The position numbers were made by a program, and so were the translations under genes. The notes under the pieces were generated by a model. The model made no database searches. It saw only the letters and a program-made list of their open reading frames with translations, and had not been told where the DNA came from. From Poritiphilus flavus (GTDB taxonomy: Bacteria; Bacteroidota; Bacteroidia; Flavobacteriales; Flavobacteriaceae), in the NCBI RefSeq assembly GCF_009901585.1, contig NZ_WXYO01000002.1:92769-156768 (forward strand): a stretch of 64,000 nucleotides of DNA. Reading direction: 5' to 3'. Below, in pieces: positions 14,801-35,190 of this stretch (the stretch's first letter is position 1; each line of letters opens with the position of its first letter).

Positions 14801-14829
14801 GCAAGAGGGATTGTTTAAGCCCTTACATG

Positions 14830-15750: not shown

Positions 15751-15777
15751 GTTCAGGCATCGCAATGGGGAAGTGGT

Positions 15778-15840
15778 ATACTGCTGGCTTTTTACAGTGA
15801 GAAGCCTTAAATTAAAGCGGGGAGGGGAGTAGAACTCCCC
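15778..15840. repeat. Dispersed copy of the ~62-bp double-hairpin module
   Basis: actgctggctttttacagtgagaagccttaaattaaagcggggaggggagtagaactcccc, near-identical to the unit's 3' end. Confidence 0.75.
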
Positions 15841-15945
15841 AAACTATGTAGGCAAAAACAGTTTTGATGGTCTAACTAAGCCAAGCCCTGCTCAGCAGAC
15901 GAAGAATTACCTTTTCACCATAGGATCAATCCACCAAAAACCTAT

Positions 15946-16881: not shown

Positions 16882-16884
16882 TGA

Positions 16885-18755: not shown

Positions 18756-18966
18756 CATAGGCTTTTGTTTATTTTGACCAAAGGAAATGAAGTTCCGGGC
18801 CATGCGGAAATGTTATTGCCAAATGGAGCTGCCTGGTTGACAAGTTGAATGGTTTTCCGGATATCAGACAAAAAAAGCGGGTTTAAGATCTCGTATTGTA
18901 TTTCGTCATTTATTCGGTACACCTTGTCAATTCGATAGGCCCCAACTGTCAGGTCTCACCCGTTTT

Positions 18967-20112
18967 TTGACTAATTTTGTTCGAATGGTTCTCTCTAAAA
19001 CATTGAAATCCATAATCGCATTTATTAGCAGGTACAAATTGTATCATCTGGCATTTTGGTCTTTGTACCACTACTTCTGGTGGGCACTCATGAGTGGTAG
19101 CGCGGTTGAGGCGGTGCAGAATATCTTCTTTTCAGCATATTCTACAAAGTTTATTTTCTATGTGGTAATGCAGGCATTAGGGGTTTATTTTAATCTGTAT
19201 TTCTTAATCCCGCGGTTTTTACAGAAAGGGAACTATTTGGTTTACATCCCGATGTTATTACTGACAGTGCTTACTACTTCAGCCGGGATTATTGGGGGTT
19301 ATTATGTCAATGCTGCCGTGGTGGGCCTCCCTTTTGAAGAGCTTTTTAAGATAGCACCTACAGAGTTCTTTACTTTATTCAAAAGCAACGCGCTACCATC
19401 AACCCTGGCAAGTATGACCCTGGCCATGAGTATTAAACTGACCAAGAACTGGATGGCCTCTGAAAAGCGCAGAAATACCATTGAAAAGGAAAAACTGCAA
19501 ACCGAACTTAAATTTTTGCGTTCCCAGTTCAATCCTCATTTCTTGTTCAATACCATTAATTCCATTTTTGTGCTGATACATAAGGACCAGGATAAAGCCT
19601 CAAACTCTTTGGCAAAATTCTCTGAATTGCTTCGATATCAATTGTATCAATGCAACGAACCTTTTATTCCTCTGGAACAGGAATTGGATTATCTAGTCAA
19701 TTTTATTGAACTGGAAAAGCTAAGGCAAGAGTCGGAGCTTTTGGAATTAAATGTTGATCTGGACAAAACAACTTCCCTCACTTTGGAAATCGCCCCTTTT
19801 CTAATGATACCTTTTGTGGAAAACGCTTTTAAGCATGTTTCGTATCATAAAAACGCTAAAAATTGGATTGATATCCAGTTACGACTAGAACAAAGCAACT
19901 TACAGCTAATGGTCTCTAATAGTAGGAATCCCCTTGTAGTTGAAAAGGAAAATGGAGTTAATGGGATAGGTTTGGCCAATGTAAAGCGCAGGCTGGAGTT
20001 ACTGTATCCGAACGCCCATAAGCTGGAGATCATTAAGGATAATCTGCAACACGCCATAAAACTAGATCTTAAACTACAACAGCTTGAAGTTGTAAAATCT
20101 CAAATAGCCTGA
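18967..20112 (+). CDS. LytS-type sensor histidine kinase (His_kinase PF06580 + HATPase_c) with membrane N-terminus
   Basis: 'FLRSQFNPHFLFNTINSI' is diagnostic of LytS/YehU-family kinases. Confidence 0.8.
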   Translation: MTNFVRMVLSKTLKSIIAFISRYKLYHLAFWSLYHYFWWALMSGSAVEAVQNIFFSAYSTKFIFYVVMQALGVYFNLYFLIPRFLQKGNYLVYIPMLLLTVLTTSAGIIGGYYVNAAVVGLPFEELFKIAPTEFFTLFKSNALPSTLASMTLAMSIKLTKNWMASEKRRNTIEKEKLQTELKFLRSQFNPHFLFNTINSIFVLIHKDQDKASNSLAKFSELLRYQLYQCNEPFIPLEQELDYLVNFIELEKLRQESELLELNVDLDKTTSLTLEIAPFLMIPFVENAFKHVSYHKNAKNWIDIQLRLEQSNLQLMVSNSRNPLVVEKENGVNGIGLANVKRRLELLYPNAHKLEIIKDNLQHAIKLDLKLQQLEVVKSQIA

Positions 20113-20116
20113 CAGA

Positions 20117-20839
20117 ATGATACGATGTGCTGTAATAGATGATGAACCCCTGGCTCGGGAATGTTTGGTGAATTACATCCAAAAAATTGATTTTTTGGAT
20201 TTGGTAGGTGAAGGGCCAGACCCTACTGCCTTGTTGAATATTGCAAATAGGCAAACGCTGGACCTTGTATTCCTCGATATACAAATGCCGATCATGACCG
20301 GAATTGAGTATTTAAAGTCAACCAAAGTGAGGCCAATGGTAATCCTGACCACTGCGTATCCCAGCTATGCACTTCAAGGATTTGAATTGGACGTCCTGGA
20401 TTATATGGTCAAGCCCATAACCATGGAACGATTCCTAAAAGGTGCCAACAAGGCGAAGGACTATCTTTTGCTTGCTAAGGGTGACAATAATGCCAATAAG
20501 AGCGGCGCTCCTCCGGAATATTTTTTTGTGAAGTGCGAAAGTGTATATGAAAAGATATTCTTTGATGAAGTGGAATATGTGCAGGCACTGCAAAATTATG
20601 TGGTCATATACACTTCAGGCAGCAAGTACGTAACGCTTATGTCTATGAAGCGCATAGAGTCGCTTTTAGGAGCTTCGCAATTTATTAGGGTCCACAAGTC
20701 CTATCTGGTTGCATTGGACAAAATACAAAGTGTAGAGAATACGCGATTGCATTTAACTTCAGCGACCATTCCCCTAAGTCGAAATTATAAGATTAATGTC
20801 TTTGAACACGTTCTGAACAAATCGTTTTTAAAGAAGTAG
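20117..20839 (+). CDS. LytR/AlgR-family response regulator (REC + LytTR DNA-binding domain)
   Basis: REC 'CAVIDDEPLA…LVFLDIQMP', C-terminal LytTR. Confidence 0.85.
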   Translation: MIRCAVIDDEPLARECLVNYIQKIDFLDLVGEGPDPTALLNIANRQTLDLVFLDIQMPIMTGIEYLKSTKVRPMVILTTAYPSYALQGFELDVLDYMVKPITMERFLKGANKAKDYLLLAKGDNNANKSGAPPEYFFVKCESVYEKIFFDEVEYVQALQNYVVIYTSGSKYVTLMSMKRIESLLGASQFIRVHKSYLVALDKIQSVENTRLHLTSATIPLSRNYKINVFEHVLNKSFLKK

Positions 20840-21020
20840 ATCTCTTACACCTGGGATGAATTCCAGGTGAAACAAATGCTGTATTCATGTATAAATTTTG
20901 TGGTTGATCTGATCTTTACCTGATTGTCCGCTATAAGACCAGTTTCTATTGGCTCATCTAAACCGGTTTACCTTTGGCCAATTCTTGGGCTGAATACCTA
21001 AAGCAGTTTACTAGCACTAA

Positions 21021-21083
21021 AACTGTTGGTTTTTTACAGAGAGGAGGCCTAAATTGATATTGAGGAGGGGATTGGTAATCCCC
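21021..21083. repeat. Dispersed copy of the ~62-bp double-hairpin module
   Basis: actgttggttttttacagagaggaggcctaaattgatattgaggaggggattggtaatcccc. Confidence 0.7.
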
Positions 21084-21512
21084 ATTTTAAAAGCAAAACC
21101 AGAACTTGGCCAATTACTTCACTTTGTTGGCATCCAAGGTATTTTTGTATTTCTGGGACCGTACCGACTCCGTGTGGTTAAACACCTTTTTTCAGGACTA
21201 TTGACAGACCTTAACGATCTGGATAATCTCAGATGGACTTATTATTTGGGCTCCATATCCGGCACTATTATAGGATTCCTTTTGCATAGATTTAAATACT
21301 TCTGGAAGATCCAATCCATGGGCATAAGCGGGTAATTTTGTCAGAAATTATTAGTGTAACAGGTTGATGACTTTGCATGCATGAATCAGGAATGTGTCGC
21401 TTTCAGCATTTGAACTGCCACAATCGCATAGGCGGTATTGCAGGATCTGCCAAAGGAATTGTACAACTGTTTCTGCCTCATGAAAATCACCTTAAATAAA
21501 AGAATATTTGCA

Positions 21513-22475
21513 ATGAAAAATGAAAACACTCCTCAAGATCTACCATGGTGTGAATATCCAAAGGCTTCTGAATTGGAACGACATGGTTTGATGAAGTTGC
21601 CGAACAAACTAAGGACCATCTGCTGGAGCAAAGTGAAAAAGTATCGAACCAATACCTATGCCATAAAAATGTTGGGTTGTCTAAATGATCCCCAAATATT
21701 GGAAATGGCCAGAATGGTAGCTGATTCTTTTGGAAAGAACGAACCTATGAATCGGCATATCAATATGCCAAAACAAATACCGGATGAACTTAAAAACTAT
21801 CTTCACAGAGACCCATTTGGCAGCGCATTTTTTGGAGAGTGGTCCTCGGAAAATTTGATGTATTGGTTCATACGAATGTTTATACTTACCGATCCGGCAG
21901 ATCCGATTGACAAGGTAGAGATTAACAGGGACCTAAAGAAAATGTCGCTTACCATGCTTGGTCCTGATTCCAAAATTTTGGGCGGAGCATATAATATTAC
22001 AGTATGCGAAGAGGAAGACGGTTTCAGGGAGTTTGATCCAATTCTCAGAGCTGTATTTACGGTAGATAAACCTATTTTCGATTTTATATTTTCTCAAGAG
22101 CATCTGGCTATTCAGCTGCTAAAAAGTAAGTATTTTGAATTTAAGAAGGCATTAGAGAATGGAGAGGTAGCATCTCATTTTATGGTTGCAAAGTGTCCGC
22201 AATTACCTAAAAAGCATGCCTTCGAGTTAGTGGCTGCTTCTGCAGAAGTATTAAAAGTTCAGGGATTCAAATATATAATGGTTTGCGCTACAAATCAATG
22301 GACCGGTGCGGCTTGCGAGGCACTAAACGGAACAAGAGTACATTTTGCTCCTTTTAGGACAGAAAGACTAATTGCAGATGCTTTTAGCGCTTCTGAATCA
22401 GAGCCCTATAGCAGTGATGGCTTTATATCAGATAAAGATAGCGGAGCAATGCTTTATGTATTGAACCTTAACTAA
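21513..22475 (+). CDS. Hypothetical cytoplasmic protein. Start taken at 'MKNENT'
   Basis: Long ORF with no confident domain. C-terminal half is weakly GNAT-like. Confidence 0.45.
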   Translation: MKNENTPQDLPWCEYPKASELERHGLMKLPNKLRTICWSKVKKYRTNTYAIKMLGCLNDPQILEMARMVADSFGKNEPMNRHINMPKQIPDELKNYLHRDPFGSAFFGEWSSENLMYWFIRMFILTDPADPIDKVEINRDLKKMSLTMLGPDSKILGGAYNITVCEEEDGFREFDPILRAVFTVDKPIFDFIFSQEHLAIQLLKSKYFEFKKALENGEVASHFMVAKCPQLPKKHAFELVAASAEVLKVQGFKYIMVCATNQWTGAACEALNGTRVHFAPFRTERLIADAFSASESEPYSSDGFISDKDSGAMLYVLNLN

Positions 22476-22593
22476 TTCTGTCTACTTAAAACTTTAGGAT
22501 ATCAATAACAAGTAAGAATCTATCATTTGATAATTTTGCAAGCGTTGTACTTATTATACTTCAGAAAACTGCAGCATTAATTTCCTTTGAAAA

Positions 22594-23541
22594 ATGGACC
22601 AGTCAACGATGTTGAATTCTAGCAAATACGAGAGATTTATCCTATTATTCGCGATTTACATTTTAAGCCATGCTTGTAGCAAGGATAACACGCCCGCGCA
22701 GATAAGTGACCCCGACCCAATTGATCCCGACTTGGAATTGGTACAGCTACCTATAGTGGTTCATGTAATTCACAATGGAGAGGAAATTGGGGCCGGGCCT
22801 AATCTTTCAACCGAACGCATCCTAAGGCAAATAGCAATTATAAATGAGGACTTTCGTCGTAAAGAAGGTACCAAAGGGTACAATGAGCATCCGGATGGTG
22901 CGGACTCAAGGGTGGAATTTGTGCTTGCCAAAAAAAATCCGGATTCGGAGTCTTTTAATGGAATTAATAGGATAGATGCTTCTACAATAGATGTAGAAGA
23001 TCTGGGTTATAGTCCCAATCATTATTCGCAATACGCGTATTGGGATCCCAACCAATATATAAACGTTTGGACTACCCCTTTACCGGCCGAAACATCCTGT
23101 GTGGTCCTTGGATTGGCTACCGGGCCACTTACCGATCTTCCGGGGACTGAATTACTTGCCATTCCGCAGGAAGGAGATGCAGAAGGCATTTTAATCAACT
23201 GGTCACATTTTGGTGAATCAGTAATAAATTGTCATGCGCGATACGGGCGAACCCTAACCCATGAGATGGGCCACTATTTGGGACTCTTACATCCCTGGGG
23301 TGGAAACGACTGTGAATCCAATGACTTCTGTGATGATACCCCTCCAGTGGACAAAGCGGTTTTTGGACGAACTGCCTTTGAGGGCTGTTCGGGAGAATCT
23401 ATTATGATAGCTAACTATATGAACTATAGCGATGATGAGGTAATGAATATTTTTACGAAGGATCAGGTTGATAGAATTCGTTACGTCCTCAAAAACCACC
23501 CCGGCAGGAACAATTTGATAACTAGTCCGGCGCTGCAGTAA
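22594..23541 (+). CDS. Zinc metalloprotease, metzincin M43 (cytophagalysin/pappalysin-like) lipoprotein
   Basis: 'HEMGHYLGLLHPWGG' = HExxHxxGxxH. Lipobox 'SHACS'. Confidence 0.75.
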   Translation: MDQSTMLNSSKYERFILLFAIYILSHACSKDNTPAQISDPDPIDPDLELVQLPIVVHVIHNGEEIGAGPNLSTERILRQIAIINEDFRRKEGTKGYNEHPDGADSRVEFVLAKKNPDSESFNGINRIDASTIDVEDLGYSPNHYSQYAYWDPNQYINVWTTPLPAETSCVVLGLATGPLTDLPGTELLAIPQEGDAEGILINWSHFGESVINCHARYGRTLTHEMGHYLGLLHPWGGNDCESNDFCDDTPPVDKAVFGRTAFEGCSGESIMIANYMNYSDDEVMNIFTKDQVDRIRYVLKNHPGRNNLITSPALQ

Positions 23542-23542
23542 A

Positions 23543-24019
23543 ATGAAACCTGAGAACTTAATTATTCTGACTTGCCCGGATTGGGAAAGCGTACCAATTT
23601 CACTTTTGTTGTTAGCAGATCCTGATGAGAAAAGGCTTGAAGCCTATATAAAAACGGGAAGTTGTTATATTGCCAAAATAGAGGACACCATAATTGGAGT
23701 ATTGGTGTTAAAAGAAATCAATCCAACTACTCTGGAAATTAAGAACATTGCCATAGATGAACCTTTTCAGGGCTACGGCTTTGGTAGTCATCTACTGAAT
23801 TTTGCATCGGAAGTTGCCAGAGATCAGGGGTATAAGTCGCTGATAATCGCAACGGGGAATTCCAGCATAGGACAGCTAAAACTATATCAGCGAATCGGTT
23901 TTGAAATATTTGATATCGAGATGAACTACTTTACTCTCGAATACCAAGCGCCGATTTATGAAAACGGAATTCAGTGCAAGCACAAGATTTTTCTACGGAA
24001 AGATTTGAACAACAACTAA
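23543..24019 (+). CDS. GNAT-family N-acetyltransferase
   Basis: 'IAIDEPFQGYGFGSHLL' acetyl-CoA-binding motif. Confidence 0.75.
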   Translation: MKPENLIILTCPDWESVPISLLLLADPDEKRLEAYIKTGSCYIAKIEDTIIGVLVLKEINPTTLEIKNIAIDEPFQGYGFGSHLLNFASEVARDQGYKSLIIATGNSSIGQLKLYQRIGFEIFDIEMNYFTLEYQAPIYENGIQCKHKIFLRKDLNNN

Positions 24020-24048
24020 AGTAAGCTCCTATACGATCTGCCCCCTTA

Positions 24049-25254
24049 TCATTTTTTTGACTGCAGTCTTTTTCTGAATTCCGTCGGGTTCATATTGAAT
24101 TTACGTTTGAAAGCAATTGAAAAATTATTAGAATGCTTGTAGCCTACTTTTTCGGCAATAGAGGCGATAGACTCCTCAGGGTCTGTTAATAGGCGGGAGG
24201 CATTGGAAAGTCTTATATCAGTCAGAAAATGAATAACCGGCGTCTCAAAAAGCTCTGAGAAAGCGGTTTTGATCTTGTACTGGTTTATTCCAAAAGACCT
24301 TGCTAAAGAGCTGATAGTTATCTCTTCAGGATAATTGGTTTCAAGGAAATCACGAATCTGGTATATCTTAAAGAGATCTTCTACGCGTAATTCCTCTAAC
24401 TTTGAATTTACTGTGGCTCTTTCACCGGTTACAAACGTTTGTATGGCCAGTAACTCTTTTTTATACTCGCCAAACCAAACAAGGTGATCATTCCCGCTGC
24501 TTAGTATTAATTGAGAGTTCGGAATTTTATCATGTATATATTGGCTATGTTGAGATTCTATTAATCTATCCCCTTCTCTATGGATAATTAAAGTAGGAGC
24601 TTGAACCTTTCTTAATATAGAAGTCACATCTATTTCAATGTTCATCTCATACAACTTTCTGGCAGTGGTTGGGCTTGCACTGCGGCGCAGAAATTGAGAC
24701 CATTGTTTTTGAACACCTTTCTTGTGTTGTACACTTGGAGCGAAGTATTTAAGCCCTACAGGTTCTCCCCAATGCTCAAATATATAATCTATAGATTTTA
24801 AATGTTGCCTCTTTGTTAAGCCGTATGGATAGCTATCGGACTTTAACCACTTTGCAAAGCTACCAATTAAGATGAGTTTGGAGACCATACCAGGGTGTTG
24901 CACAGCAAAGCGTAACGCCAGGGCACCTCCTTCGGAAAGGCCTATAAAATTTGCCTTTTTGACACCTATCTGCGACAAAATAATTTCAAGATCGTTTGCA
25001 CGTTCTTGAATGCCAGGGGGTTCATTCTCATTAATGTTATCAGACAGGCCCGTTCCTCTTTTATCAAAAATGACCAGTTTAGAAAAGGATGCAATATACC
25101 TTAACCATGCTGCTGCCTCAGGAATATCCCAAACCGCTTCAATGTTAGAAATCCATCCGGGGATCAATATCAAAAAATCACCTTTGTCGCCAATAATTTG
25201 ATATGCGAGATTACCCTCTTTTGATCGGGCATATAAAGTGTTGGGAATATTCAT
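24049..25254 (-). CDS. Alpha/beta-hydrolase fused to a C-terminal AraC-type HTH. Start taken at 'MNIPNT'
   Basis: 'GLSEGG' nucleophile elbow with HGW box upstream. AraC HTH 'SSLARSFGINQYKIKTAFSELF…FRKR' at the C-terminus. Confidence 0.7.
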   Translation of the reverse strand: MNIPNTLYARSKEGNLAYQIIGDKGDFLILIPGWISNIEAVWDIPEAAAWLRYIASFSKLVIFDKRGTGLSDNINENEPPGIQERANDLEIILSQIGVKKANFIGLSEGGALALRFAVQHPGMVSKLILIGSFAKWLKSDSYPYGLTKRQHLKSIDYIFEHWGEPVGLKYFAPSVQHKKGVQKQWSQFLRRSASPTTARKLYEMNIEIDVTSILRKVQAPTLIIHREGDRLIESQHSQYIHDKIPNSQLILSSGNDHLVWFGEYKKELLAIQTFVTGERATVNSKLEELRVEDLFKIYQIRDFLETNYPEEITISSLARSFGINQYKIKTAFSELFETPVIHFLTDIRLSNASRLLTDPEESIASIAEKVGYKHSNNFSIAFKRKFNMNPTEFRKRLQSKK

Positions 25255-25355
25255 TAATGGCAAGTTAAAGAAAGACAACCTTCTTTGCGCATAGATTAAA
25301 ATACTTTTAAGATATCCTGTCTCCATGCTTATGCCGGTACATTTGGGCAAAAAAC

Positions 25356-25988
25356 ATGTGCTCAAATAACAATTTCTCATTGAGACTTATCAATTCAAGA
25401 ATATTCCGTGCATTAAACGGATATATGCATTATAAATACAAGAATAGAAAAACAGCGCTTTTTTCGGATCTGCCGGAACGCTTACTTGAAATTGGCCCTG
25501 GTGCAGGGGCTAACATGCGCTACTATAAACCGGGCACTGAGGTAATAGCTGTTGAACCGAACCCACATATGCATAGATCATTAATTGATCAATCTGAAAG
25601 ATACGGACTGCAACTTCGAATCGTCAAGGGTTCTGCTGAGGTTCTAAACCTTATGGACAATAGCATTGACGCTGTTGTCAGCACCTTAACACTGTGCACT
25701 ATACCAGACGAAAGGCAGGCGCTTTCCGAGATTAAACGTGTATTGAAACCTGGAGGTAAGTTCTACTTTTTAGAGCACGTTGCAGCCAATAAAGGATCCC
25801 TGTTAAGAAGAATTCAAATAGTGATCCACCGTCCCTGGAAGTGGTTTTTTGATGGCTGCCATACACATAAGAACTTAAGGAGACGGATTTGCGAGACTGG
25901 CTTTTCAAATGTTCAAATAGAAAATTTTAAGCTTTATTCTCCCTTTATTCCAATCACTCCACAGATTTCTGGTATTGCACGCAAATAG
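25356..25988 (+). CDS. Class I SAM-dependent methyltransferase
   Basis: Motif I 'LEIGPGAGAN', post-I 'VIAVEPN', 'LKPGGKFYFLEH'. Confidence 0.7.
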   Translation: MCSNNNFSLRLINSRIFRALNGYMHYKYKNRKTALFSDLPERLLEIGPGAGANMRYYKPGTEVIAVEPNPHMHRSLIDQSERYGLQLRIVKGSAEVLNLMDNSIDAVVSTLTLCTIPDERQALSEIKRVLKPGGKFYFLEHVAANKGSLLRRIQIVIHRPWKWFFDGCHTHKNLRRRICETGFSNVQIENFKLYSPFIPITPQISGIARK

Positions 25989-26036
25989 ATCTGAGGAAAC
26001 AAACTGGTATGATATCGCAATTCAAAAATTCACATA

Positions 26037-26636
26037 ATGTATTATATAAAAACTATAATCTTCCTGATGCTAAGCTTATTTTGGTATAGTTCTTTCGCTC
26101 AAAGAAACAATTGCTCCATAATAGATCAAGAAGAATGTTTCATCTACCCGGACCAGTTCAAGCCCGGCTTCGGGGAAGCTCCCGAGAGCCTAATTAAAGC
26201 AGACCGTAAATGGTCAGTATTGTCCAACCGTATTTCATTTATCAGTCAAAATGGAGTCAAACTCAATTATTTAGAAATTGAAGATAAAATGATTGCACCG
26301 GAAATCTTGTTATTATATAAGAATCATGGAGGTGGTCTGTCATTTAAGCAAGTTGTAAGTGAAATGCAGAGACTGAACAAAGAAACCAAAATAATAGCTG
26401 TAAATCTTGATGAAACCAATTCAAAGGAATCTCAGATTGAAGCTAAAACCCAAGTAAGTACAGCATCAACAATCGAGTTGGTCAAGGCAATTGTTGAGTT
26501 AATCTTACATAAAAACATTGTGAACTGCCTTATAGTGCCCTATGCTGATGCCAAAGTGGTTGCTGCTGAAATTGAGCGTCGGCGCAAGACAGGTGGGAAA
26601 GAATGGTTTATGAATACCGATTCTTACCTTCACTAG
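26037..26636 (+). CDS. Hypothetical secreted protein
   Basis: Signal peptide. No domain recognised. Confidence 0.4.
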   Translation: MYYIKTIIFLMLSLFWYSSFAQRNNCSIIDQEECFIYPDQFKPGFGEAPESLIKADRKWSVLSNRISFISQNGVKLNYLEIEDKMIAPEILLLYKNHGGGLSFKQVVSEMQRLNKETKIIAVNLDETNSKESQIEAKTQVSTASTIELVKAIVELILHKNIVNCLIVPYADAKVVAAEIERRRKTGGKEWFMNTDSYLH

Positions 26637-26700
26637 GCCAACTTAAGCTATGTGATCTAAAAGTTAATCGAAACCAAGATTTAAATGCATAAAACCAAAA

Positions 26701-26724
26701 CCCTGTATGAGAATACAGGGTTTA
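26701..26724 (+). terminator. Possible terminator hairpin
   Basis: ccctgtatgagaatacaggg then ttta. Weak T-tract. Confidence 0.35.
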
Positions 26725-26726
26725 CG

Positions 26727-27127
26727 CTTTAAGTGACCTCCACAGGCTTGCCTGCCATAGCCTTAGCGACGACAGGATTGTTACCTTACCCTTCAAACCC
26801 AATTGCTATTGCAATGGGAAAGCTGTAAACTGCTGATTTTTTGCAGTGAGAAGCTTTAAATTATGTTTAGGGAGGGGAGTAGAACTCCCCGATTTTCTGC
26901 TTTAAGTGACCTCCACAGGCTTGCCTGCCATAGCCTTGGCGACGGCAGGATTGTTACCTTACCCTTCAAACCCAATTGCTATTGCAATGGGAAAGCTGTA
27001 AACTGCTGGTTTTTTGCAGTGAGAAGCTTTAAATTATGTTTAGGGAGGGGAGTAGAACTCCCCAATTTTTCTGCTTGATGTGACCTCCACAGGCTTGCCT
27101 GCCATAGCCTTGGCGACGGCAGGATTA
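26727..27127. repeat. Tandem array of ~2.3 copies of a 175-bp hairpin-rich unit, each beginning with a copy of the tRNA-Arg 3' end
   Basis: Copies start at 26733, 26906 and 27080 (gtgacctccacagg). Units are >95% identical. Confidence 0.9.
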
Positions 27128-27547
27128 CTCGCCGAACCTACCTTGAGTGGTGGTCGAAAGGCTCGTGATCCTTTGAACCCACTCTTGTAAATGCAATCAG
27201 CGGCCATATTTACAAAACCTTGGTTTGAGAATATCATTACTGGGACATTAGGGTATTAGGGATTGCAAACGACCGAACTAGCTGATCTGCGTCTTTAATG
27301 CGGCACAGTGTGAGTGGGTCCTTTCCCTGCTGGTATATCTTGGTCGATCTTGGTTGGATGCCCATTTTCTCTACACCTGTGAAGGCAAACAAGAACAGTC
27401 CAATCATCTGCATCTACGAAAATGTCAAATCTATCCCGACCTTATTTACTTTTGCATTCCAGCGGCTTGATACCATTTTGAATTGGCCTCGACGTCTTCC
27501 ACAGCAATGATTGGATAGGTTTTGGTCATACTAAATTGTTTTATGAT

Positions 27548-27988
27548 TTAGTCGGTAATCAGCTGTTCTATTTTAATAAAGCCAGCTCTTGCCGCATCTG
27601 CGTGTACTTGCATTGCTTTTTCGTCGTAAAGATTTTCGTGCGTGTATGTTAGTTCAGTTTTTCCATTGACTTCCTTAAACTCGACCGTTAGGATTGTCTC
27701 GTTCGCCCAGTTTTCGATCTTCTCATTCTTGGCCCATTGGAACGTCCCAACGAGTTTATATGGTGGATCAACCTCGGTATACATTCCTGAGAGTGGATAC
27801 TTGATTCCATCATCACCGAGCATCGTGAGTCGATAGGTGCCACCTTTAGAAACATTCAATTCATGAATTTCTGCACCGTCTTTGCTGGATCCAAACCATT
27901 TTGCCATTTTTGCTGGATCGGTCCAGGTTGCATAAACCTTTTCTGGTGATGCATTAAATGTGTGTTTTAAAATAAGTGTTGTATTCAT
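27548..27988 (-). CDS. SRPBCC-superfamily protein (Aha1/activator-of-Hsp90-ATPase-like domain)
   Basis: 'EKVYATWTDPAKMAKWFG…' AHSA1 pattern. 146 aa. Confidence 0.65.
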   Translation of the reverse strand: MNTTLILKHTFNASPEKVYATWTDPAKMAKWFGSSKDGAEIHELNVSKGGTYRLTMLGDDGIKYPLSGMYTEVDPPYKLVGTFQWAKNEKIENWANETILTVEFKEVNGKTELTYTHENLYDEKAMQVHADAARAGFIKIEQLITD

Positions 27989-28794
27989 ATTCCATGTATT
28001 AGTTTTGAAACATCAGGTTCAAGTGTCGGCACCTAGAAACTACACTCACATCCCTTTTAGCTTTAGTAAAACAGACCGGATTCAAAACATTTAAGAAATA
28101 AATATTTGCCTTAATATTGCTTTCTCCAGCTCATTCGAAGAGAAAAACAGAGGTGTGGTCTTGCCAAAGATCTAGTGCATAATGTGTATCTGACATATAT
28201 TCCGGATACTCATTGGATGGCTCATATAACCAAGTTATGAGATCAATTCCATCATAATAGAATCAAATAATTCACTCATTGCCTGGCCGAAGGAACTCTT
28301 AATATCGAGATGAAAATTTCGTCAAATGAAACTTAACCTCCGTATTGATTTTTCTGCCGGTCCCTGCCGTCCGCTTTGAGCCGAAAACAGACTATAAATC
28401 TTAATTTAAAAAAACAATGACATTAGTCACGTAAACGGCCATTTTACAAGACATGAATTCAAAAACAAACTTTCTTTTGTATAGGTTTCCTAGCTCTGGT
28501 CTTTTTTAGTGATTTTGTTAATTAACCTTTTATCGCAGACTCTACTTGCATTTGTAATTCGGTTAACGCTGTTGACTAATAAAAAGTGACCCTGCCTATG
28601 CCGGCAGGCTCTACAGATTTCCTTACTTTGTTCGGTTTTCCTTCGAACTCCTTCCTAAAAATAAAATCCCTGCTTGGAATTTGGAGTTTGTGATTTGAAT
28701 TTCAAGGATTATATGCGGTGATCCTAAATAAGTTCCGTAGTCTAAATGCAAAGCTGCAAATCGCGGATTTACCTGCTTTCAGGGAGCTTTTCAT

Positions 28795-28996
28795 TCTTAA
28801 GTGACCTCCACAGGCTTGCCTGCCATAGCCTTGGCGACGGCAGGATTGTTACTTTACCCTTCAAACCCAATTGCTATTGCAATGGGAAAGCTGTAAACTG
28901 CTGGTTTTTTGGAGTGAGAAGCTTTAAATTATATTTAGGGAGGGGAGTAAAACTCCCCGATTTTCTGCTTGATGTGACCTCCACAGAATTATTCCA
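28795..28996. repeat. Fourth copy of the 175-bp unit, flanked by tRNA 3'-end core copies at 28801 and 28984
   Basis: ~93% identical to the units at 26727-27075. Confidence 0.9.
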
Positions 28997-29143
28997 TGAT
29001 CCTGAATAAAATCGCTGCTGCAAATAGAAAGTCCAATTACTTGCGTAATTATTTTTCATTTTACTCCGAACCTCTGAAGCATAGCTCCAGGTTCTTCGTA
29101 AAACAAAAAATCCACCACGGTGGTGATGGACTTTCTGCTTGAT

Positions 29144-29160
29144 GTGACCTCCACAGGATT
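29144..29160. repeat. Sixth direct copy of the tRNA-Arg 3' end (gtgacctccacaggatt), 164 bp from the gene itself
   Basis: Exact 17-bp match to tRNA positions 29308-29324. Confidence 0.85.
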
Positions 29161-29242
29161 ACCTCTCTTCGTTTGGTTTTCCTTTGTGTTCCATGTTGAG
29201 AATCAAAAAATCAATGCTTCGCATTGCAAAATCCTCTCTTAC

Positions 29243-29277
29243 AAAACAAAAAAGCGAGCTTTATGTTTTGCTCGCTT
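29243..29277 (-). terminator. Rho-independent terminator downstream of tRNA-Arg
   Basis: Minus strand: agcgagc-aaaacataa-agctcgct followed by TTTTTTGTTTT. Confidence 0.7.
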
Positions 29278-29308
29278 CGGTTTGTTGAATCATTTTTTGA
29301 TTCATCTG

Positions 29309-29382
29309 TGACCTCCACAGGATTCAAACCTGTAACCTCTTGAGCCGTAATCAAGTGCTCTATTCAGTTGAGCTAGGAGGCC
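29309..29382 (-). tRNA. tRNA-Arg (anticodon ACG). CCA not encoded
   Basis: Manual cloverleaf: acceptor GGCCTCC/GGAGGTC, D-arm GCTC…GAGC, anticodon stem CTTGA/TCAAG with loop TTACGGC, T-arm ACAGG-TTTGAAT-CCTGT. Confidence 0.85.
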
Positions 29383-29834
29383 TTTGTTATTAATGTTCTT
29401 AACGTACCCTTTTATGCCTTTGCTAAGGGAGGGCAAATATATTTCTTTTTGTACTTAAGGCAAAATAACCACGCACCAAATATTGGTAGCCATGCCATAG
29501 CCGAAGTGAATGCCTCGAACTAATTTCCGAGGGATTTGGTCGTTACGTAATAGCGCCAGCCGATGATGGCCAACTGAAATTTTGAGGCCTTAGACAAATC
29601 CAAACCCCGCTTTGAATAGGAGGGCAAAAAGAGCCTGTTGGCCCTGGCTAAAAAAGTAAATAAAGCCTTTTTCATCGGTCTGCTTATGTGGTAAAGGTAA
29701 GCAATGTCCCGGAATAGGCATTTCCCTAACCAAAGCGATACCTTCCCTCAATGCTCTTGTACTCTGGCTAACCACCCATTTCAGATACGGCCAATTCGCC
29801 CTAGTTTAAGATCAAATTCAAAAGATATGTCATT

Positions 29835-31136
29835 ATGAAAACAAAACTTCATTTACTTCTTATTCCGGCTGTGATCTTACTTGGAGGAGCCCTGCGCTTC
29901 TTCCCGGGTTCTCCGGAAAAGGCAAGAACAATAAAGCCTGAAAAAGGTTGTGTCTTCATGACCGTTATGGGGGAGCAGTCTTCCCTGGGCTTTGAACGCT
30001 ACAAATCTGATGAAAATATGGAACTGTCAGTCAGAGATGGACTTCAATGGTTGTCAAAAGCCCAGCTTCCCAACGGTGGTTACGGGGCAGGCAGCCACAG
30101 CGCCCAGCATATTAGGGACCCCCACGCGGTAAAAGCAGATCCAGCAACAACCGCCATGGTGGGTATGGCTTTCCTGAGAAGTGGTACTACACTTCAAAAA
30201 GGGATACACGCCAACCACCTGAAAAAAGCATTGAATTACCTGCTCGAAACCATAGAAAGCGCCGAGGCTGGATACCCCTATATCACCAAAGTCAGAAATA
30301 CCCAGATACAGACAAAACTAGGTGAGAATATAGACGCGGTGCTGGCTTCTCAATTCCTTTCCAGTATTTTGGACAGAGATCTGGAAGGTATTGATAGAAA
30401 ACGAGTTTCGCGATGTTTAGACATTTGTATCTCCAGGATCGAAGCAGGGACTGATGAGTCCGGTAAACAGAGAGGCGCAGGCTGGGCAGGAGTATTGCAA
30501 AGTGGCCTTGCCAGTAGTGCCCTGGAAGCCGCGCAGGCTGTCGGAGCTACGGTAGACGAGGTAATTGTAGAGCGGTCTAAATCCTATCAGAAAAGCAATT
30601 ATGATGAGAAAAACACCTCGGTTAAAACAACAGACGGCGCCGGGATAGTACTATATGCCGTAAGCGGAAGTGTAAGGGCTAGCGCCAAAGAAGCAAGAAA
30701 GGTCAAAAGTGATATGAAAAAAGCCCGTAAAGAAGGTAGAATTCCAACTGCGGCGGAAGTTAGCGTAGAGGTTCTGGAAGATATTGGCTATTCCAAAGAG
30801 GACGCTATGAAATACAATACCTCTTACGAAATTTACGAGTCTGCCAAGCTTATGGCCCAGGATGAAAAGGTTATGGACGGATTTGGAAACAATGGCGGAG
30901 AAGAATTCCTGAGCTATCTTCAAACAGGCGAGTCCTTGCTCGTTAGCAAAGACGAAAGCTGGAAGAAATGGTATGACGACATGAGCGGAAGGATTCTGAA
31001 GATCCAGAATTCAGACGGTAGCTGGAGCGGGCATCATTGTATCACTAGTCCCGTTTTCTGTACAGCCACCAGCCTCATGTTACTTACGGTTGAGGAAGAC
31101 ATTGATTTTTTACAGAAGATAGGAGAAGAAGGTTAG
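29835..31136 (+). CDS. Secreted prenyltransferase/squalene-oxidase-repeat (alpha/alpha-toroid) protein
   Basis: 'LQWLSKAQLPNGGYG' and 'NSDGSWSG' QW-type repeats. Signal peptide. Confidence 0.5.
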   Translation: MKTKLHLLLIPAVILLGGALRFFPGSPEKARTIKPEKGCVFMTVMGEQSSLGFERYKSDENMELSVRDGLQWLSKAQLPNGGYGAGSHSAQHIRDPHAVKADPATTAMVGMAFLRSGTTLQKGIHANHLKKALNYLLETIESAEAGYPYITKVRNTQIQTKLGENIDAVLASQFLSSILDRDLEGIDRKRVSRCLDICISRIEAGTDESGKQRGAGWAGVLQSGLASSALEAAQAVGATVDEVIVERSKSYQKSNYDEKNTSVKTTDGAGIVLYAVSGSVRASAKEARKVKSDMKKARKEGRIPTAAEVSVEVLEDIGYSKEDAMKYNTSYEIYESAKLMAQDEKVMDGFGNNGGEEFLSYLQTGESLLVSKDESWKKWYDDMSGRILKIQNSDGSWSGHHCITSPVFCTATSLMLLTVEEDIDFLQKIGEEG

Positions 31137-31250
31137 TTGGCAGTCCTCCTTCGCTAAAGCTTCGGAGGATGAAATCAGTTGGCAGTAAACAGTTATAACT
31201 TTTAACACTTAAAACCTTTTAAACTTCAACTTAAACAGTCATCAAATTAA

Positions 31251-31281
31251 GCGCCCACCTCTATTAGGTGGGCGCTTTACT
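31251..31281. terminator. Bidirectional intrinsic terminator between convergent genes
   Basis: gcgcccacct-ctatt-aggtgggcgc, a 10-bp GC-rich stem, then TTT. Confidence 0.65.
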
Positions 31282-31330
31282 GATGGTCCATTAGCATCAA
31301 TAGTATTGGTAGTAGGGCATGGCTGTTTGA

Positions 31331-32671
31331 TTATTTGGATTTGGTTTTAGTCTCCATCATCTTTTTGGCCAGTTCAGCTCCTATCAGGGACTGCAGCAGA
31401 TTGCCGTCATTAGAGCTGGTTTTTCCGCCTTCTATATAGATGTCTGGCAATTTAAGCTCCTTGAGTTCCCTGGCTACACCGACCGAGGTTTTATATTCCC
31501 ATTCAGCGCGCTCCTGGGGTGTAAGACCAGCAGTTACCAATTTGGCATTCTGATAAGCTTCCGCATCCGCTGCAACCTTTTTGCTCTGAGCCTTGAACTT
31601 CTCCACCTCAAACTGCTTCTTCTCCTTTACCAGGTTAAATTCAGCAACTTTGGCTTCGGTCTCAGCCGCGATGGTTTTTTGGATCTGCTCCTTTTCCAGT
31701 CGGGCACGCTCGGCGGCTTTTTCAGCCTCACCACGAGCCTTTTCTTTCTGAGCGCGATAAAACTCTCTTTCGGCCTGCTGCTTTTCAAGTTGAGTTTGTG
31801 CAACTTCCTCTTTTTGCAACTGTAGCCGCTTGTCAAAAGTCTCTTCCCAATCAATTTCGGTAACCACTGCCTGAACTACGGTTAGTCCGTACGCTCTAAG
31901 GGAATTTCCCTCTTCGCGAATTGGCATGCCGTTCTCCCTTTTGATACGGAAGCGCTTCTGCTTGGTTTCTTTGTTGATCACGGTGCGGACAGTGGCGCTA
32001 TCGCCAATGATATCCTTGCGCTCGTTCTCAACATACTCCTCGAGTACGTACATTCCGTTTTCGAGCTGATCTTTAAAATACCTGTCAAAATCTGAGGCCT
32101 GGCCAGAGATATAATCCTGGGCGTCCATAAGTTTACAGGTGTTCTTTATAGACTGATCAATGTTGGGAATGATACGTGAACGAATCATATTTTGCTCTGT
32201 TTTGTTTCGATCTGCCACGGAAAGAAATTGTGCTTCGTCTTCCGTATTGATGCTGATCACTACAGAAGTAGCGATTCTGGCTTTTACAGCGTCACTGAAT
32301 GCCCAGTACTTGGCTGCATCCACGTTGGCGTATTCGCTCTGCTCTCCCAACTCGCCATCCCTGCCGGGTATGACATACTTAATGGGTAGTTCAAATTGAA
32401 TGGGTATAAGCCTTCCCCACATCTTGGTGTTGATCCCCTGCCGGAAAACAGCTTTCTGGCCACCCCAGGGGTACTGGACCGCATAAGCGGTTCCGGGCTC
32501 TGCATAAAATAGTAGTCCGGTAAAAATACTCATTAGGATACCTAAGAGGATGATCTGAAGGCTCCTTCTCTGGTTAAACCAATTGAGCAGACTAATATTC
32601 TTAAATATAGGTTTGGCGATAAGGGTGATTACGCCAATAATTATGATAAATATTCCTAAGAAAGTTAACAT
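31331..32671 (-). CDS. SPFH/flotillin-like (YqiK-type) membrane protein with a long coiled-coil
   Basis: N-terminal TM helices, then an E/K/A-rich coiled coil and flotillin-like C-terminus 'IEGGKTSSNDGNLLQSLIGAEL'. Confidence 0.5.
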   Translation of the reverse strand: MLTFLGIFIIIIGVITLIAKPIFKNISLLNWFNQRRSLQIILLGILMSIFTGLLFYAEPGTAYAVQYPWGGQKAVFRQGINTKMWGRLIPIQFELPIKYVIPGRDGELGEQSEYANVDAAKYWAFSDAVKARIATSVVISINTEDEAQFLSVADRNKTEQNMIRSRIIPNIDQSIKNTCKLMDAQDYISGQASDFDRYFKDQLENGMYVLEEYVENERKDIIGDSATVRTVINKETKQKRFRIKRENGMPIREEGNSLRAYGLTVVQAVVTEIDWEETFDKRLQLQKEEVAQTQLEKQQAEREFYRAQKEKARGEAEKAAERARLEKEQIQKTIAAETEAKVAEFNLVKEKKQFEVEKFKAQSKKVAADAEAYQNAKLVTAGLTPQERAEWEYKTSVGVARELKELKLPDIYIEGGKTSSNDGNLLQSLIGAELAKKMMETKTKSK

Positions 32672-33062
32672 AGTGAAAAGTTTAGAGGTTAGAAGATAGG
32701 ATAATGATAAGCAGACTCACGAGGAGTTTGGCTAAAGTGATCATAGTGGGTGGAATTAGCGGTTAATAATTAGTTGTTGATACTTGTGATGCATAATCGA
32801 TTATCCAATCAATATATATCAGAAAGAACCATATTTGCTAACGAATTTGAAAGAATTAATGGATTTGAATATAGATATGTAAGCAAATAAATGATCAGAC
32901 TTACAATATTTAGAAGTGGGTCTTGGACAAAGTTTTAATTAATAAGTAGAAAACTATCCCATAGCTCGGAAGTATAAGAATTGAAGGGGCTTTTTTGGGC
33001 GAATTTGATTTTGCAAGGCGAATTTTTTCTAAAAAATAACGGTTTTCGGTCATTTCATCTTT

Positions 33063-33098
33063 GAAAAATAAAAAAACCGATAGTATTACCATCGGTTT
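33063..33098 (-). terminator. Rho-independent terminator after the BlaR1-like gene
   Basis: Minus strand: aaccgatgg-taatac-tatcggtt followed by TTTTTTTATTTTT. Confidence 0.7.
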
Positions 33099-33146
33099 TC
33101 CAAACTACTTAAATACTCCTTCAGATGCGCTTGGAGATCTTCAAGA

Positions 33147-34817
33147 TCACGATTTGGTTGTGATTTCCACAACACCGTATTTTGCCCTTTCACCGTATTT
33201 TTTGAGGGCCCCTTCTCCCTTACTCACATCTATGGACTCGATGTCGTCCGGTGAAAGGGATTTGAAGGTCTTTTCATCGACTTCCTCCCCGTCCAGAATG
33301 TATAGCGGAGGGTTACCACCGGTATGATCCGAAAAGAAAAAATTAGGCCCATCTGAACTGATGACCTCTACGTCGTGCTCATCGTCCGAGTCTCTCAATA
33401 TCATTACATTACTGGAGGAGTTCCTTCCAATGCGTTCTACCTTGATTTTACTGTTATGAAATTCTCCGTCCTCTTTGAGCTTTTCATACTCCTCTCGGCT
33501 GACTTCCTCTCCGTCTATTAAAATGCGTTCCTCTCCGTCTTCTTCCAGGATCTCTATAACCTTTCCATCATGCTTCCCACTATGGACCCAAACGGATTGA
33601 CCTCCCCTTTGGTGAAGCATCTCTGGATGTGAGGGCTCGCCCCCCATGGAGAATACCTGATTCTCCGGATCGTAGTAAATGGTAATAGGATCTATAGGCT
33701 CTCCGTCATTATCGTATTTGGACGAAGCGGAAAACTGCTTTCCTTCTTTTTCTATCCCACCCATATGAATGGATATATTGGTGATTTCACGGTCGTTATT
33801 CCGAATGACATCGTATGAGAAGTCCACACCTTTTTTGGCAAGGTCCTTCTTCATTTTCTGAAGTTCATTTTCGGAAGTCTTCTTGTCTATAGTGATCTCT
33901 ATGATCTTTTGCCCGGTCAGGGTCATGGCAAAAGGCTGCTGTAGCTGCCCGTCCGGAACATAGATCTCTGCCGTGTTGAAACTAAACAAAAAGATGGCTA
34001 AAGCCGGTAAGACCAGCATGGCCCTCAGAACCCTGGTTTTACTTGATCTGGATCTTTGTAACATAACTATTCGTTTTTTGATTAATGAATTGAAAAAATG
34101 GTTCGTAATAGCCGTGCAAAAGGGGTTTCCGGATACCTTTAGCATGGTGTATTGATAGGCTTTAACGGAAGATTCTTCCTTAATGGCGCTGGCATCTGCC
34201 AGGAACTCCAGGTTTTGCTGTATGGTCTTCCTATACAACCAGCTTACCGGGTTTAACCAGAATACTACGGTCAGTAAATTTGCCAACAAAACATCCACCG
34301 TATGCACCTGTTTACAATGTACTTTTTCATGCCTTAGGATGGCTTGCAGTTCCGTGGCTTTGTAGCTGGATGGATTGTATACGATATAATTAAAAAATGA
34401 AAAAGGCGCCAGGGTTTGTTCTGTTTCTACAAACACATATTTGCCCTCTCTGCGTTTTGGGTTGATACCGAGGATACGCCTGAGTGAAAATAGCTGCACC
34501 CCCAGCCTGATCAGCAGGATCAGCACTCCGCTTAAGTATATCAATGCAAGTGGTAACCACCAATTGAATGCCGCTGATTCTTCAATTGCAATTCCCTGAG
34601 AAAAGCTGTCTTCTGTAACCGTAACAGGAAGCGGTGCTACCTCTACATATCGGACCAGCGTGATCAATGGAAACAGTATGGAAAACAATATTCCGGCCAC
34701 TAAAAAGTGCCTGTTCAGGGAGAAGAAGGTCTCGTTTCTTAGGAGTAACTGATAGATCCCATAGAATAAAAGCAGTATAAACGACGACTTTAGAAAATAG
34801 ATAAAAAAGGCTTCCAT
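33147..34817 (-). CDS. BlaR1/MecR1-family M56 peptidase signal transducer with a large non-canonical C-terminal domain
   Basis: 4 TM helices. 'LRHEKVHCKQVHTVDVLLANL' = M56 HExxH. Confidence 0.8.
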   Translation of the reverse strand: MEAFFIYFLKSSFILLLFYGIYQLLLRNETFFSLNRHFLVAGILFSILFPLITLVRYVEVAPLPVTVTEDSFSQGIAIEESAAFNWWLPLALIYLSGVLILLIRLGVQLFSLRRILGINPKRREGKYVFVETEQTLAPFSFFNYIVYNPSSYKATELQAILRHEKVHCKQVHTVDVLLANLLTVVFWLNPVSWLYRKTIQQNLEFLADASAIKEESSVKAYQYTMLKVSGNPFCTAITNHFFNSLIKKRIVMLQRSRSSKTRVLRAMLVLPALAIFLFSFNTAEIYVPDGQLQQPFAMTLTGQKIIEITIDKKTSENELQKMKKDLAKKGVDFSYDVIRNNDREITNISIHMGGIEKEGKQFSASSKYDNDGEPIDPITIYYDPENQVFSMGGEPSHPEMLHQRGGQSVWVHSGKHDGKVIEILEEDGEERILIDGEEVSREEYEKLKEDGEFHNSKIKVERIGRNSSSNVMILRDSDDEHDVEVISSDGPNFFFSDHTGGNPPLYILDGEEVDEKTFKSLSPDDIESIDVSKGEGALKKYGERAKYGVVEITTKS

Positions 34818-35176
34818 TACTTGGTTTTTTCGATGAGATCTATGATTTCCTTTAATTCTTTTACCGAGATCTTTTCTTCCTTGGCAAAATGTGAGACCAG
34901 ATTCTTGAAAGAATTGTCATAATAGTCCGCTATAGTAGCGTTGATGTAGCGCTTGCGGTAAGCCTCTTTAGAAACCAGCGGGTAGTACCGGTGAGTGTTT
35001 CCAAAGGCCTCGTAAGACACATACTTTTTGTCTTCCAGGTTACGAACAATGGTGGACAGCGTATTGTAGTGCGGCTTGTCTTTCTTAAATTCCGCCCGGA
35101 TCTCCTTAACAAAGGCCTTTTTAAGCCTCCAAAGGATCTTCATCACTTCTTCTTCCTTATTGGTTAACTTTTGCAT
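34817..35176 (-). CDS. BlaI/MecI/CopY-family transcriptional repressor
   Basis: 119-aa winged helix 'EEEVMKILWRLKKAFVKEI'. Stop overlaps the blaR1-like start. Confidence 0.85.
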   Translation of the reverse strand: MQKLTNKEEEVMKILWRLKKAFVKEIRAEFKKDKPHYNTLSTIVRNLEDKKYVSYEAFGNTHRYYPLVSKEAYRKRYINATIADYYDNSFKNLVSHFAKEEKISVKELKEIIDLIEKTK

Positions 35177-35190
35177 ATTCCTGCTGTTTT

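Follow-up and report, generated by a model that had tools for sequence, protein, structure and literature searches.

Repeated 3' ends of tRNA-Arg(ACG) in Poritiphilus flavus delimit a probable relic array of attachment-site-flanked remnants

A hairpin-dense repeat with tRNA-like ends lies in the genome of Poritiphilus flavus, and its density of stems raises the question of whether it is a structured RNA, a small mobile element or something else. The original prediction, made on the 64,000-nt stretch of DNA that we analysed as a whole (hereafter, the window), described a unit of about 175 bp with 2.3 tandem copies and one distant copy. This repeat is real. Tandem Repeats Finder reported a period of 173 with 2.3 copies, 96% matches and 0 indels at 26726-27126, and a third full copy was located at 28788-28987 by repeat search and BLAST, with 95% identity over 190-200 nt. 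Aligned globally in pairs, the three full units were 96.0, 96.0 and 94.2% identical, so that the claimed identity of more than 93% across the 1.7-kb gap was borne out by measured values of 94-96%. The three copies are listed below.

26747-26905, minus strand: U1, tandem copy, 159 nt between cores (Tandem Repeats Finder, repeat search)
26920-27079, minus strand: U2, tandem copy, 160 nt between cores (Tandem Repeats Finder, repeat search)
28815-28973, minus strand: U4, isolated copy, 159 nt between cores (repeat search, BLAST)

The order of elements that had been described for the tRNA strand was recovered on the minus strand, as listed here for U2.

27093-27080, minus strand: tRNA 3'-end core CCTGTGGAGGTCAC
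27063-27047, minus strand: hairpin 1, GGGGAGT-tct-ACTCCCC
27019-27003, minus strand: hairpin 2, CTGC-aaaaaacca-GCAG
26991-26971, minus strand: imperfect palindrome cccattgcaatagcaattggg
26949-26924, minus strand: hairpin cctgcc-N14-ggcagg

On this strand, a unit runs from the core through a linker of 14-16 nt (ATCAAGCAGAAAAT or TTAAAGCAGAAAAT), hairpin 1, a single-stranded stretch, hairpin 2 and the imperfect hairpin to cctgccgt...atggcagg and a terminal caag. What had been called a near-perfect palindrome is actually an 8-bp stem with one bulge (cccattgc-aata-gcaattggg). Two ORFs span the units (26863-27078 and 28746-29009), and both had been dismissed as fake proteins; the first, which was the one of the two tested, had zero relatives among 5.8 billion proteins. 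When the unit-crossing ORF was used as a protein probe for further copies of the unit, none was found. The two ORFs should not be called genes in annotation.

The tRNA-like start of the unit was traced to a gene at one end of the locus. The 14-nt core CCTGTGGAGGTCAC reproduces the 3'-terminal 14 nt of an intact tRNA-Arg(ACG) gene (29321-29308), which turns the proposed tRNA 3'-end core into an exact match, and it covers the 3' strands of both the T stem and the acceptor stem, together with the discriminator base and one further base. The window holds seven cores, all on the tRNA strand (minus) and all within 2.6 kb, with 0.01 expected from shuffles, and six of them lie directly downstream of the tRNA gene.

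29434-29464, minus strand: Bacteroidetes-type tRNA promoter TTTG-N19-TATATTTG (pattern search, one of only two matches in the window)
29308-29382, minus strand: intact tRNA-Arg(ACG), the putative integration target (ARAGORN; Rfam tRNA, 58.4 bits)
29308-29321, minus strand: core 1, inside the tRNA gene (sequence)
29144-29157, minus strand: core 2, followed by ATCAAGCAGAAAG (core search)
28974-28987, minus strand: core 3, TCTGTGGAGGTCAC, with 1 mismatch (core search)
28801-28814, minus strand: core 4, followed by TTAAGAATG (core search)
27080-27093, minus strand: core 5, followed by ATCAAGCAGAAAAAT (core search)
26906-26919, minus strand: core 6, followed by the hybrid flank TTAAAGC-AGAAAATC (core search)
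26733-26746, minus strand: core 7, the distal end of the array (core search)

With its adjacent bases included, the match of core 2 to the tRNA 3' end extends to 18 nt (AATCCTGTGGAGGTCACA). The linker after core 6 is composite: its left part, TTAAAGC, is that of the ancestral flank described below, and its right part, AGAAAATC, is the start of the unit. The candidate att arms are the core CCTGTGGAGGTCAC plus ATCAAGCAGAAA and the hairpin-caag plus core. The cores at 29144 and 28974, and with them the boundaries of two unrelated cassettes (150 and 156 nt), had been missed in the earlier description.

The cores divide the locus into six intervals of, from the tRNA outward, 150, 156, 159, 1707, 160 and 159 nt. 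The 173-bp repeat thus belongs to a larger structure of core-delimited cassettes, in which it is simply the most striking component. The first two cassettes (S1 and S2) share no sequence relationship with the 173-bp unit or with one another.

29158-29307, minus strand: S1, 150 nt, gene-less, two terminator hairpins (terminator scan, comparison)
28988-29143, minus strand: S2, 156 nt, gene-less, terminator CCACCAC-cgt-GGTGG plus T-run (terminator scan)
29021-29035 and 29127-29141: internal inverted repeat of S2 (repeat search)
27094-28800, minus strand: 1707-nt cassette with one gene, about 600 nt of non-coding sequence and a degenerate core
27548-27988, minus strand: SRPBCC/AHSA1-like gene in the 1707-nt cassette (Pfam PF08327, 5.7e-23)
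28586-28616: degenerate core split by a hairpin, in the 1707-nt cassette
about 27200-27094, minus strand: complete module D at the end of the 1707-nt cassette, ggatcacgag...cgagtAATCCTG-hairpin-caag

The boundaries of the cassettes are sharp. The similarity of U4 to U1 and U2 (95%) starts and stops at the cores, and its outer neighbours, S2 on one side and TTAAGAATG on the other, are unrelated to the flanks of the tandem units; U therefore behaves as a discrete core-delimited cassette. Both S1 and S2 start with a terminator just past the core (terminator scan), which fits tRNA 3' ends that were supplied by incoming elements. A search of the 1.7-kb cassette for integrase remnants returned short ORFs only, without signal. 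The three unrelated cassettes are near-equal in length (150, 156 and 159 nt), an outcome not predicted by random deletion.

The two closest genomes (L003 and L004), found through a neighbouring 433-aa gene (90% protein identity), indicate where the array ends. Both carry the same tRNA-Arg, then one gene-less cassette of 166-174 nt and then a second core, which is followed by TTAAAGCGCAA and a terminator hairpin. Past core 7, the window likewise reads TTAAAGCG...terminator, and this flank is 84% identical to L004 616-719 and 80% identical to L003 4845-4918; in both relatives the matching flanks (80-84% over 74-104 nt) lie directly after the second core. Since the flank of core 7 is that of the second core in the relatives, everything between the tRNA and this flank has been inserted, and by this comparison with genomes that each already carry one cassette, the flank is the original attB flank of the tRNA.

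26690-26732, minus strand: ancestral tRNA 3' flank TTAAAGCGTAAACCCTGTATTCTCATACAGGGTTTTGG, with a bidirectional terminator (terminator scan)

The terminator in this flank is common to the array and to the convergent gene 26037-26636. The earlier description had also missed the ancestral flank after the last core and the dispersal of half the unit.

The tRNA gene also marks a change in genome content. Upstream of it, the window, L003 and L004 are collinear with 83-84% identity (29300-33099), and the genes are housekeeping genes (glutamine synthetases, RF-1 and pyrF) whose arrangement is kept as far as Allomuricauda. Downstream, the content differs among all three genomes, with only small shared pieces, and the accessory genes there encode an AbiEii toxin, GntR- and AraC-type regulators, beta-lactamase-fold proteins, a GNAT acetyltransferase and a methyltransferase. 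The GC content is 0.39-0.41 on the downstream side vs 0.43-0.47 on the other. In the more distant Allomuricauda (L026), the core is not repeated within 5.1 kb of sequence downstream of the tRNA-Arg, and the corresponding locus of Aureisphaera (L027) is without a tRNA. The change of synteny and gene content at the tRNA, together with the single core in Allomuricauda, makes the tRNA the edge of a variable island, and from the genomes compared the core array appears to be specific to the Poritiphilus clade. A metagenome scan with the neighbouring 433-aa protein returned 21 loci, none with a tRNA adjoining the gene. For annotation, the tRNA-Arg(ACG) of P. flavus may be read as an integration hotspot that borders a variable island, and its repeated 3' ends are usable to delimit the cassettes of the island.

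Pieces of the cassette found in the relatives are also present in the window, in another arrangement. The first ~96 nt of S1 are homologous to the sequence directly after the tRNA in L003 and L004 (BLAST match of 76% over 192 nt, tRNA included), and module D, the core-adjacent hairpin, is common to all three genomes. The ancestral cassette of L003 and L004 thus appears to be split in the window, with the first 96 nt of S1 beside the tRNA and module D 2 kb off, so that the history of the locus is more tangled than a simple stack. In L004 the core-adjacent hairpin is partially duplicated internally, and L003 carries a ~190-nt tandem duplication of module D. We also considered module D as a decayed tRNA 3' half reaching the anticodon loop; its alignment scores did not exceed those of shuffles.

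In our best account, serial integration was followed by decay, and then by re-copying of one remnant through both core-mediated and homologous recombination. We consider that the array is probably the relic of repeated tyrosine-integrase-type integration at the tRNA 3' end, which later decayed. An intact tRNA, direct repeats of its own 3' end and the ancestral flank in last position are together the textbook signature of site-specific integration. The target would have been the 3' end of tRNA-Arg(ACG), with its repeated 3' end as the attachment-site core. Each incoming element would have supplied its own tRNA 3' end, often with a terminator, so that the tRNA gene stayed intact, and every new integration would have displaced the earlier copies further downstream. 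Loss of genes through deletion may then have reduced the elements to att-flanked remnants of ~150-160 nt (S1, S2 and U), and decay would also have left the 1.7-kb remnant with its single gene. The U remnant was probably re-copied later. For the copy that went to a different core (U4), the simplest route would be excision by a recombinase and renewed integration at the cores. The tandem copy of U may instead have arisen by unequal crossing-over within the flanking 47-nt repeat (hairpin, core and flank), and the hybrid flank of core 6 is the product expected of such a crossover. We best read the high identity of the copies, from which the original prediction had concluded recent homogenisation or spread, as recent copying between tRNA-core repeats rather than as the homogenisation of a functional RNA family.

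Two observations complicate a simple form of this account. The hybrid flank of core 6 suggests that at least one copying step went through homologous rather than site-specific recombination, and the apparent split of the L003/L004 cassette is not explained by a simple order with the newest element nearest the tRNA unless the elements were related and had arms in common. Searches with Pfam and NCBIfam detected no integrase, excisionase or transposase domain in the 39 ORFs of at least 180 aa and several smaller ones of the 64-kb window, where 6 of the 39 received no family assignment at all; given that the window holds no integrase, we infer the recombinase. A full-length element with the same arms was not found in viral contigs, phages or plasmids. 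The database comparison that had been proposed, run as blastn of the unit against phages and plasmids, gave no match, and viral contigs scanned with the hairpin plus core, the core plus flank, module B (see below) or the tRNA 3' end yielded 0 hits. In the genome collection, the 21-nt palindrome had only two chance matches, in coding regions of unrelated MAGs and none in P. flavus itself, and a metagenome scan with the hairpin-caag-core junction gave 0 matches.

A window without an integrase is equally what would be seen if no recombinase had ever acted and the locus were a local minisatellite, in which the tRNA 3' end and its trailer were duplicated once and then expanded and diversified by slippage or unequal crossing-over into neutral junk. 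The hybrid flank of core 6 is an expected product of unequal crossing-over, and the partial hairpin duplication in L004 and the module D duplication in L003 indicate that slippage does occur at the locus. However, S1, S2, U and the 1.7-kb segment are mutually unrelated between the cores, and duplication alone cannot make such sequences. U4 is bounded by mere 14-nt cores and is unrelated to the other copies outside them, yet both of its ends are precise, and 14 nt is less homology than RecA normally needs. The position of the locus, at the synteny break of a variable island, also speaks against the minisatellite, which we regard as unlikely.

The original prediction had offered a structured RNA or a MITE, and had named as contrary evidence a match to an IS/MITE family with terminal inverted repeats and target-site duplications or to an Rfam family; no such terminal repeats or short target duplications and no Rfam match were found. 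The best matches for terminal inverted repeats of U, module B, S1 and S2 were no better than those of shuffles. Like MITEs, the unit is small, non-coding, repeated and AT-rich, with stems. It is nevertheless not a MITE as a whole, for it lacks terminal inverted repeats, is flanked by the 14-nt core instead of a short target duplication, and is confined to the tRNA array. We also rejected an integron attC array. An attC site is one long imperfect palindrome with R'' and R' boxes (RYYYAAC...GTTRRRY) that follows each ORF, and integrons carry an intI gene; by inspection, the two hairpins of module B are separate and short, there is no GTTRRRY end, and domain searches of the window found no integrase.

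About half of the unit does belong to a dispersed family. BLAST of the array against the window revealed that a segment of ~70-85 nt with hairpins 1 and 2 (hereafter, module B) is dispersed separately from the rest. A covariance model built on the copies (R1) recovered seven in the window irrespective of filtering, of which three belong to the units and four are dispersed, and one more copy is present in L003.

26978-27068, minus strand: module B in U2 (the three unit copies score 105-111 bits with R1)
26805-26895, minus strand: module B in U1
28873-28963, minus strand: module B in U4
15756-15845, minus strand: dispersed copy, 96 bits, 83% identical to the unit copy
21013-21088, minus strand: dispersed copy, 68.5 bits
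13765-13848, minus strand: dispersed copy, 67.1 bits
14807-14887, minus strand: decayed copy, 27.5 bits, E = 3e-5

All copies are intergenic and on the minus strand, and the dispersed ones all lie in the accessory region of 13.7-21.1 kb. The copy at 15756-15845, which has an orthologous counterpart at L003 4581-4671, begins 6 nt past the stop codon of a gene on the plus strand (15271-15750). Alignment of L003 with the window further upstream of this module gave no significant evidence of continued synteny. The decayed copy begins 7 nt past the stop codon of the gene 13994-14800. Pairing is conserved across the copies: 93.8% of cells are paired, and the pairing collapses when the partners are slid. 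Changes on both sides were seen in 6 of 12 pairs, compared with 2.1 +/- 1.0 in shuffles (0 of 500 as high), in an alignment that was fitted to the model and holds only ~5 independent sequences. Module B is a genuine stem-loop repeat family, and the hairpins of the unit are a mosaic of module B, the module D hairpin and an imperfect palindrome at a junction. Two further candidate relationships scored no higher than shuffles and were rejected. One would have derived the stretch of the unit that follows module B from the 3' end of a 159-aa gene; the other would have made a decayed hairpin plus core of the sequence that lies upstream of the 15.8-kb copy of module B.

These features bear on whether the 173-bp unit could be a multicopy structured ncRNA gene that is transcribed from the tRNA strand and uses its tRNA-like end as a processing or stability signal. 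The unit folds to -60.7 kcal/mol, more stably than shuffles (z = -2.6), the pairs of module B are kept through changes on both sides, its G-U wobbles fit the tRNA strand, and the module D hairpin has one compensatory change between genomes (cctGcc/ggCagg vs cctAcc/ggTagg). However, the opposite strand of the unit folds about equally well, and hairpin 2 has a stem-breaking substitution in one unit copy. At the gathering score, Rfam matched the tRNA alone, in line with the earlier statement that no known family (tmRNA, RNase P, riboswitch) fits; even at E <= 5, 26500-29500 gave chance-level hits to snoRNA and rli48 models, far below their gathering scores, and no match to the unit. The TAnnTTTG promoter motif, which the tRNA has in canonical form, is absent from both strands of the units, and the stretch from the tRNA promoter to the units contains at least three terminators. 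L003 and L004 lack the whole unit and have only pieces of it, arranged otherwise. An RNA gene is therefore scarcely probable, and of the proposed structured RNA or MITE, what survives is module B, a structured dispersed repeat; the whole unit is neither. The unit as a whole is best explained as an attachment-site-flanked remnant, with nothing in support of an RNA gene, and the candidate for a new structured RNA gives way to a reading that can be checked, a stack of attachment-site remnants.

The dispersal of module B could alternatively reflect a REP/BIME-like or IS200/IS605-derived (PATE-like) mosaic, spread by an HUH/RAYT transposase, to which the tRNA core would be incidental. REPs are single palindromes of 20-40 nt, usually in more than 100 copies and of alternating orientation in BIMEs (PMC2817692). 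Like them, the unit is a mosaic, hairpin-dense and extragenic, and module B is placed past gene ends, with two copies starting 6-7 nt past stop codons. In favour of such an origin, module B is also dispersed and intergenic, has a hairpin near each end and no terminal inverted repeats or target duplications, and 7 of 7 window copies share one orientation. Unlike a REP, it consists of two different hairpins in a single orientation, and the unit is bounded by tRNA cores, which a REP- or PATE-like origin leaves unexplained. Domain searches found no Y1/RAYT transposase in the window, and no conserved flanking target or tetranucleotide adjoins the copies. Dispersal is limited to module B, not the whole unit, and to merely four copies, all within 13.7-21.1 kb. 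We regard a transposase-driven origin of the unit as very doubtful.

The relic array that we favour resembles several known systems. In Streptococcus salivarius, microCIMEs measure 130-220 bp, carry no genes and have att direct repeats on both sides; they occur in tandem accretion arrays downstream of the 3' end of a target gene, sometimes two consecutively, and have been read as decayed ICE or IME remnants that keep the att sites alone (Lao et al. 2020, PMC7563491). The cassettes of 150, 156, 159, 160 and 159 nt fall within this size range (~130-220 bp, gene-less between att repeats) and, at 150-160 nt, share with microCIMEs that they are gene-less, core-flanked and in tandem; the 1.7-kb one-gene cassette is similar in size to a classical CIME. 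The host and target differ, a member of the Flavobacteriaceae and a tRNA here and rpmG, rpsI and fda in S. salivarius. The window is also without a tandem ICE, IME or integrase, whereas the S. salivarius survey could detect only microCIMEs adjacent to an ICE or IME. Also unlike the streptococcal cases, one array in the window holds five gene-less cassettes, three of them 94-96% identical, and it is by analogy that we take them to descend from a full element. By this analogy, the best explanation is that the locus exemplifies a known process, microCIME-like remnants at a tRNA hotspot. It would extend gene-less att-flanked remnants of 130-220 bp, so far streptococcal, to a marine flavobacterium and a tRNA target, as an unusually dense case with five consecutive remnants, three of which would be recent copies.

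Partial copies of a target gene are also known from larger islands. In Prochlorococcus, partial tRNAs in the islands of tycheposons have been interpreted as successive integrations, with older elements pushed inwards (bioRxiv 10.1101/2020.12.28.424599), and the ssrA-anchored islands of Dehalococcoides contain partial tmRNA 3' repeats (PMC3146451). The P. flavus locus is alike in having the intact gene at the island border and repeated partial 3' copies. It differs in that those islands have integrases and kb-sized elements, whereas the intervals in the window are mostly ~155 nt.

Another reading takes the 173-bp unit to be alive: it would be an attP-only mini-element that is moved in trans by a tRNA-Arg-specific integrase encoded elsewhere. 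It would then be the smallest piece with both arms and the core, the integrase counterpart of a MITE, and ~150-160 nt could possibly be the minimal functional size of an attachment site (both arms plus core). In a weaker variant, module B would be a new structured intergenic repeat or RNA family that is specific to a flavobacterial clade. We consider a live element decidedly unlikely. If true, it would explain that three unrelated cassettes are near 150-160 nt long, that an exact core-to-core unit is found at two cores, and that the copies are 94-96% identical; mobile units would further show the lower size limit of integrase-mobilised elements.

Copies of module B, the two-hairpin repeat of about 70-85 nt present in each 173-bp unit, were also found dispersed elsewhere in the window, where they occupied three consecutive intergenic regions and one more, in a single orientation throughout.

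13765-13848, minus strand: module B copy
14807-14887, minus strand: module B copy
15756-15845, minus strand: module B copy
21013-21088, minus strand: module B copy

Two of these copies start 6-7 nt past a stop codon (14800 and 15750), in each case that of a plus-strand gene, and dispersed copies were absent from the half of the window that holds housekeeping genes (35 kb). The dispersed module B may represent an element that the island carries at cassette junctions or in 3' UTRs.

Comparison with L003, one of the two closest genomes, revealed a difference in what lies between module B and the ancestral tRNA flank, the sequence originally 3' of the tRNA-Arg(ACG). In L003 (4672-4845), module B, with the 159-aa gene, and this flank are ~170 nt from each other, whereas in the window they are separated by ~10.9 kb of accessory genes (15846-26690), including those for DUF4440 proteins, a LytTR two-component system, an M43 peptidase, a GNAT acetyltransferase, an AraC-hydrolase fusion and a methyltransferase. 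No flanking repeat was recognised around this block. It also contains an orphan 199-aa gene (26037-26636) that adjoins the array and had, among 5.8 billion proteins, its own P. flavus entry as sole match.

The small palindromic region adjoining the core (the last 14 nt of the tRNA 3' end, repeated through the array) is unstable in all three genomes (window, L003 and L004). In L003 (4715-5000, minus strand), the core-adjacent module shows a tandem duplication of ~190 nt (D and D') and its hairpin (cctacc...ggtagg) is much longer; the same hairpin is partly duplicated internally in L004 (672-760, minus strand). Within the window, one degenerate core is split by a hairpin, and cassette S2, a gene-less interval of 156 nt between cores, contains an inverted repeat.

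28586-28616, minus strand: degenerate tRNA core interrupted by an 18-nt hairpin, aaatCTGTAGAG[cctgccggcataggcagg]GTCACttttt
29021-29035 and 29127-29141: internal inverted repeat of S2, CAAATAGAAAGTCCA and TGGACTTTCTGCTTG

The hairpin-split core had a terminator-like score and shares its cctgcc/ggcagg stem with the 173-bp units, in which the stem stands immediately before the core. In S2, the post-core linker pairs with a site ~90 nt downstream, and this repeat could be a protein-binding (arm-type) site.

Elsewhere in the window, the accessory region encodes, at 2157-3875, an AbiEii nucleotidyltransferase toxin and a divergent GntR-family HTH protein, which look like a type IV (AbiE-like) toxin-antitoxin pair. 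A cluster at 33147-36279 combines a BlaR1-like M56 peptidase, a BlaI/Penicillinase_R repressor and a beta-lactamase-fold gene, in an order kept in the more distant Allomuricauda genome (L026).
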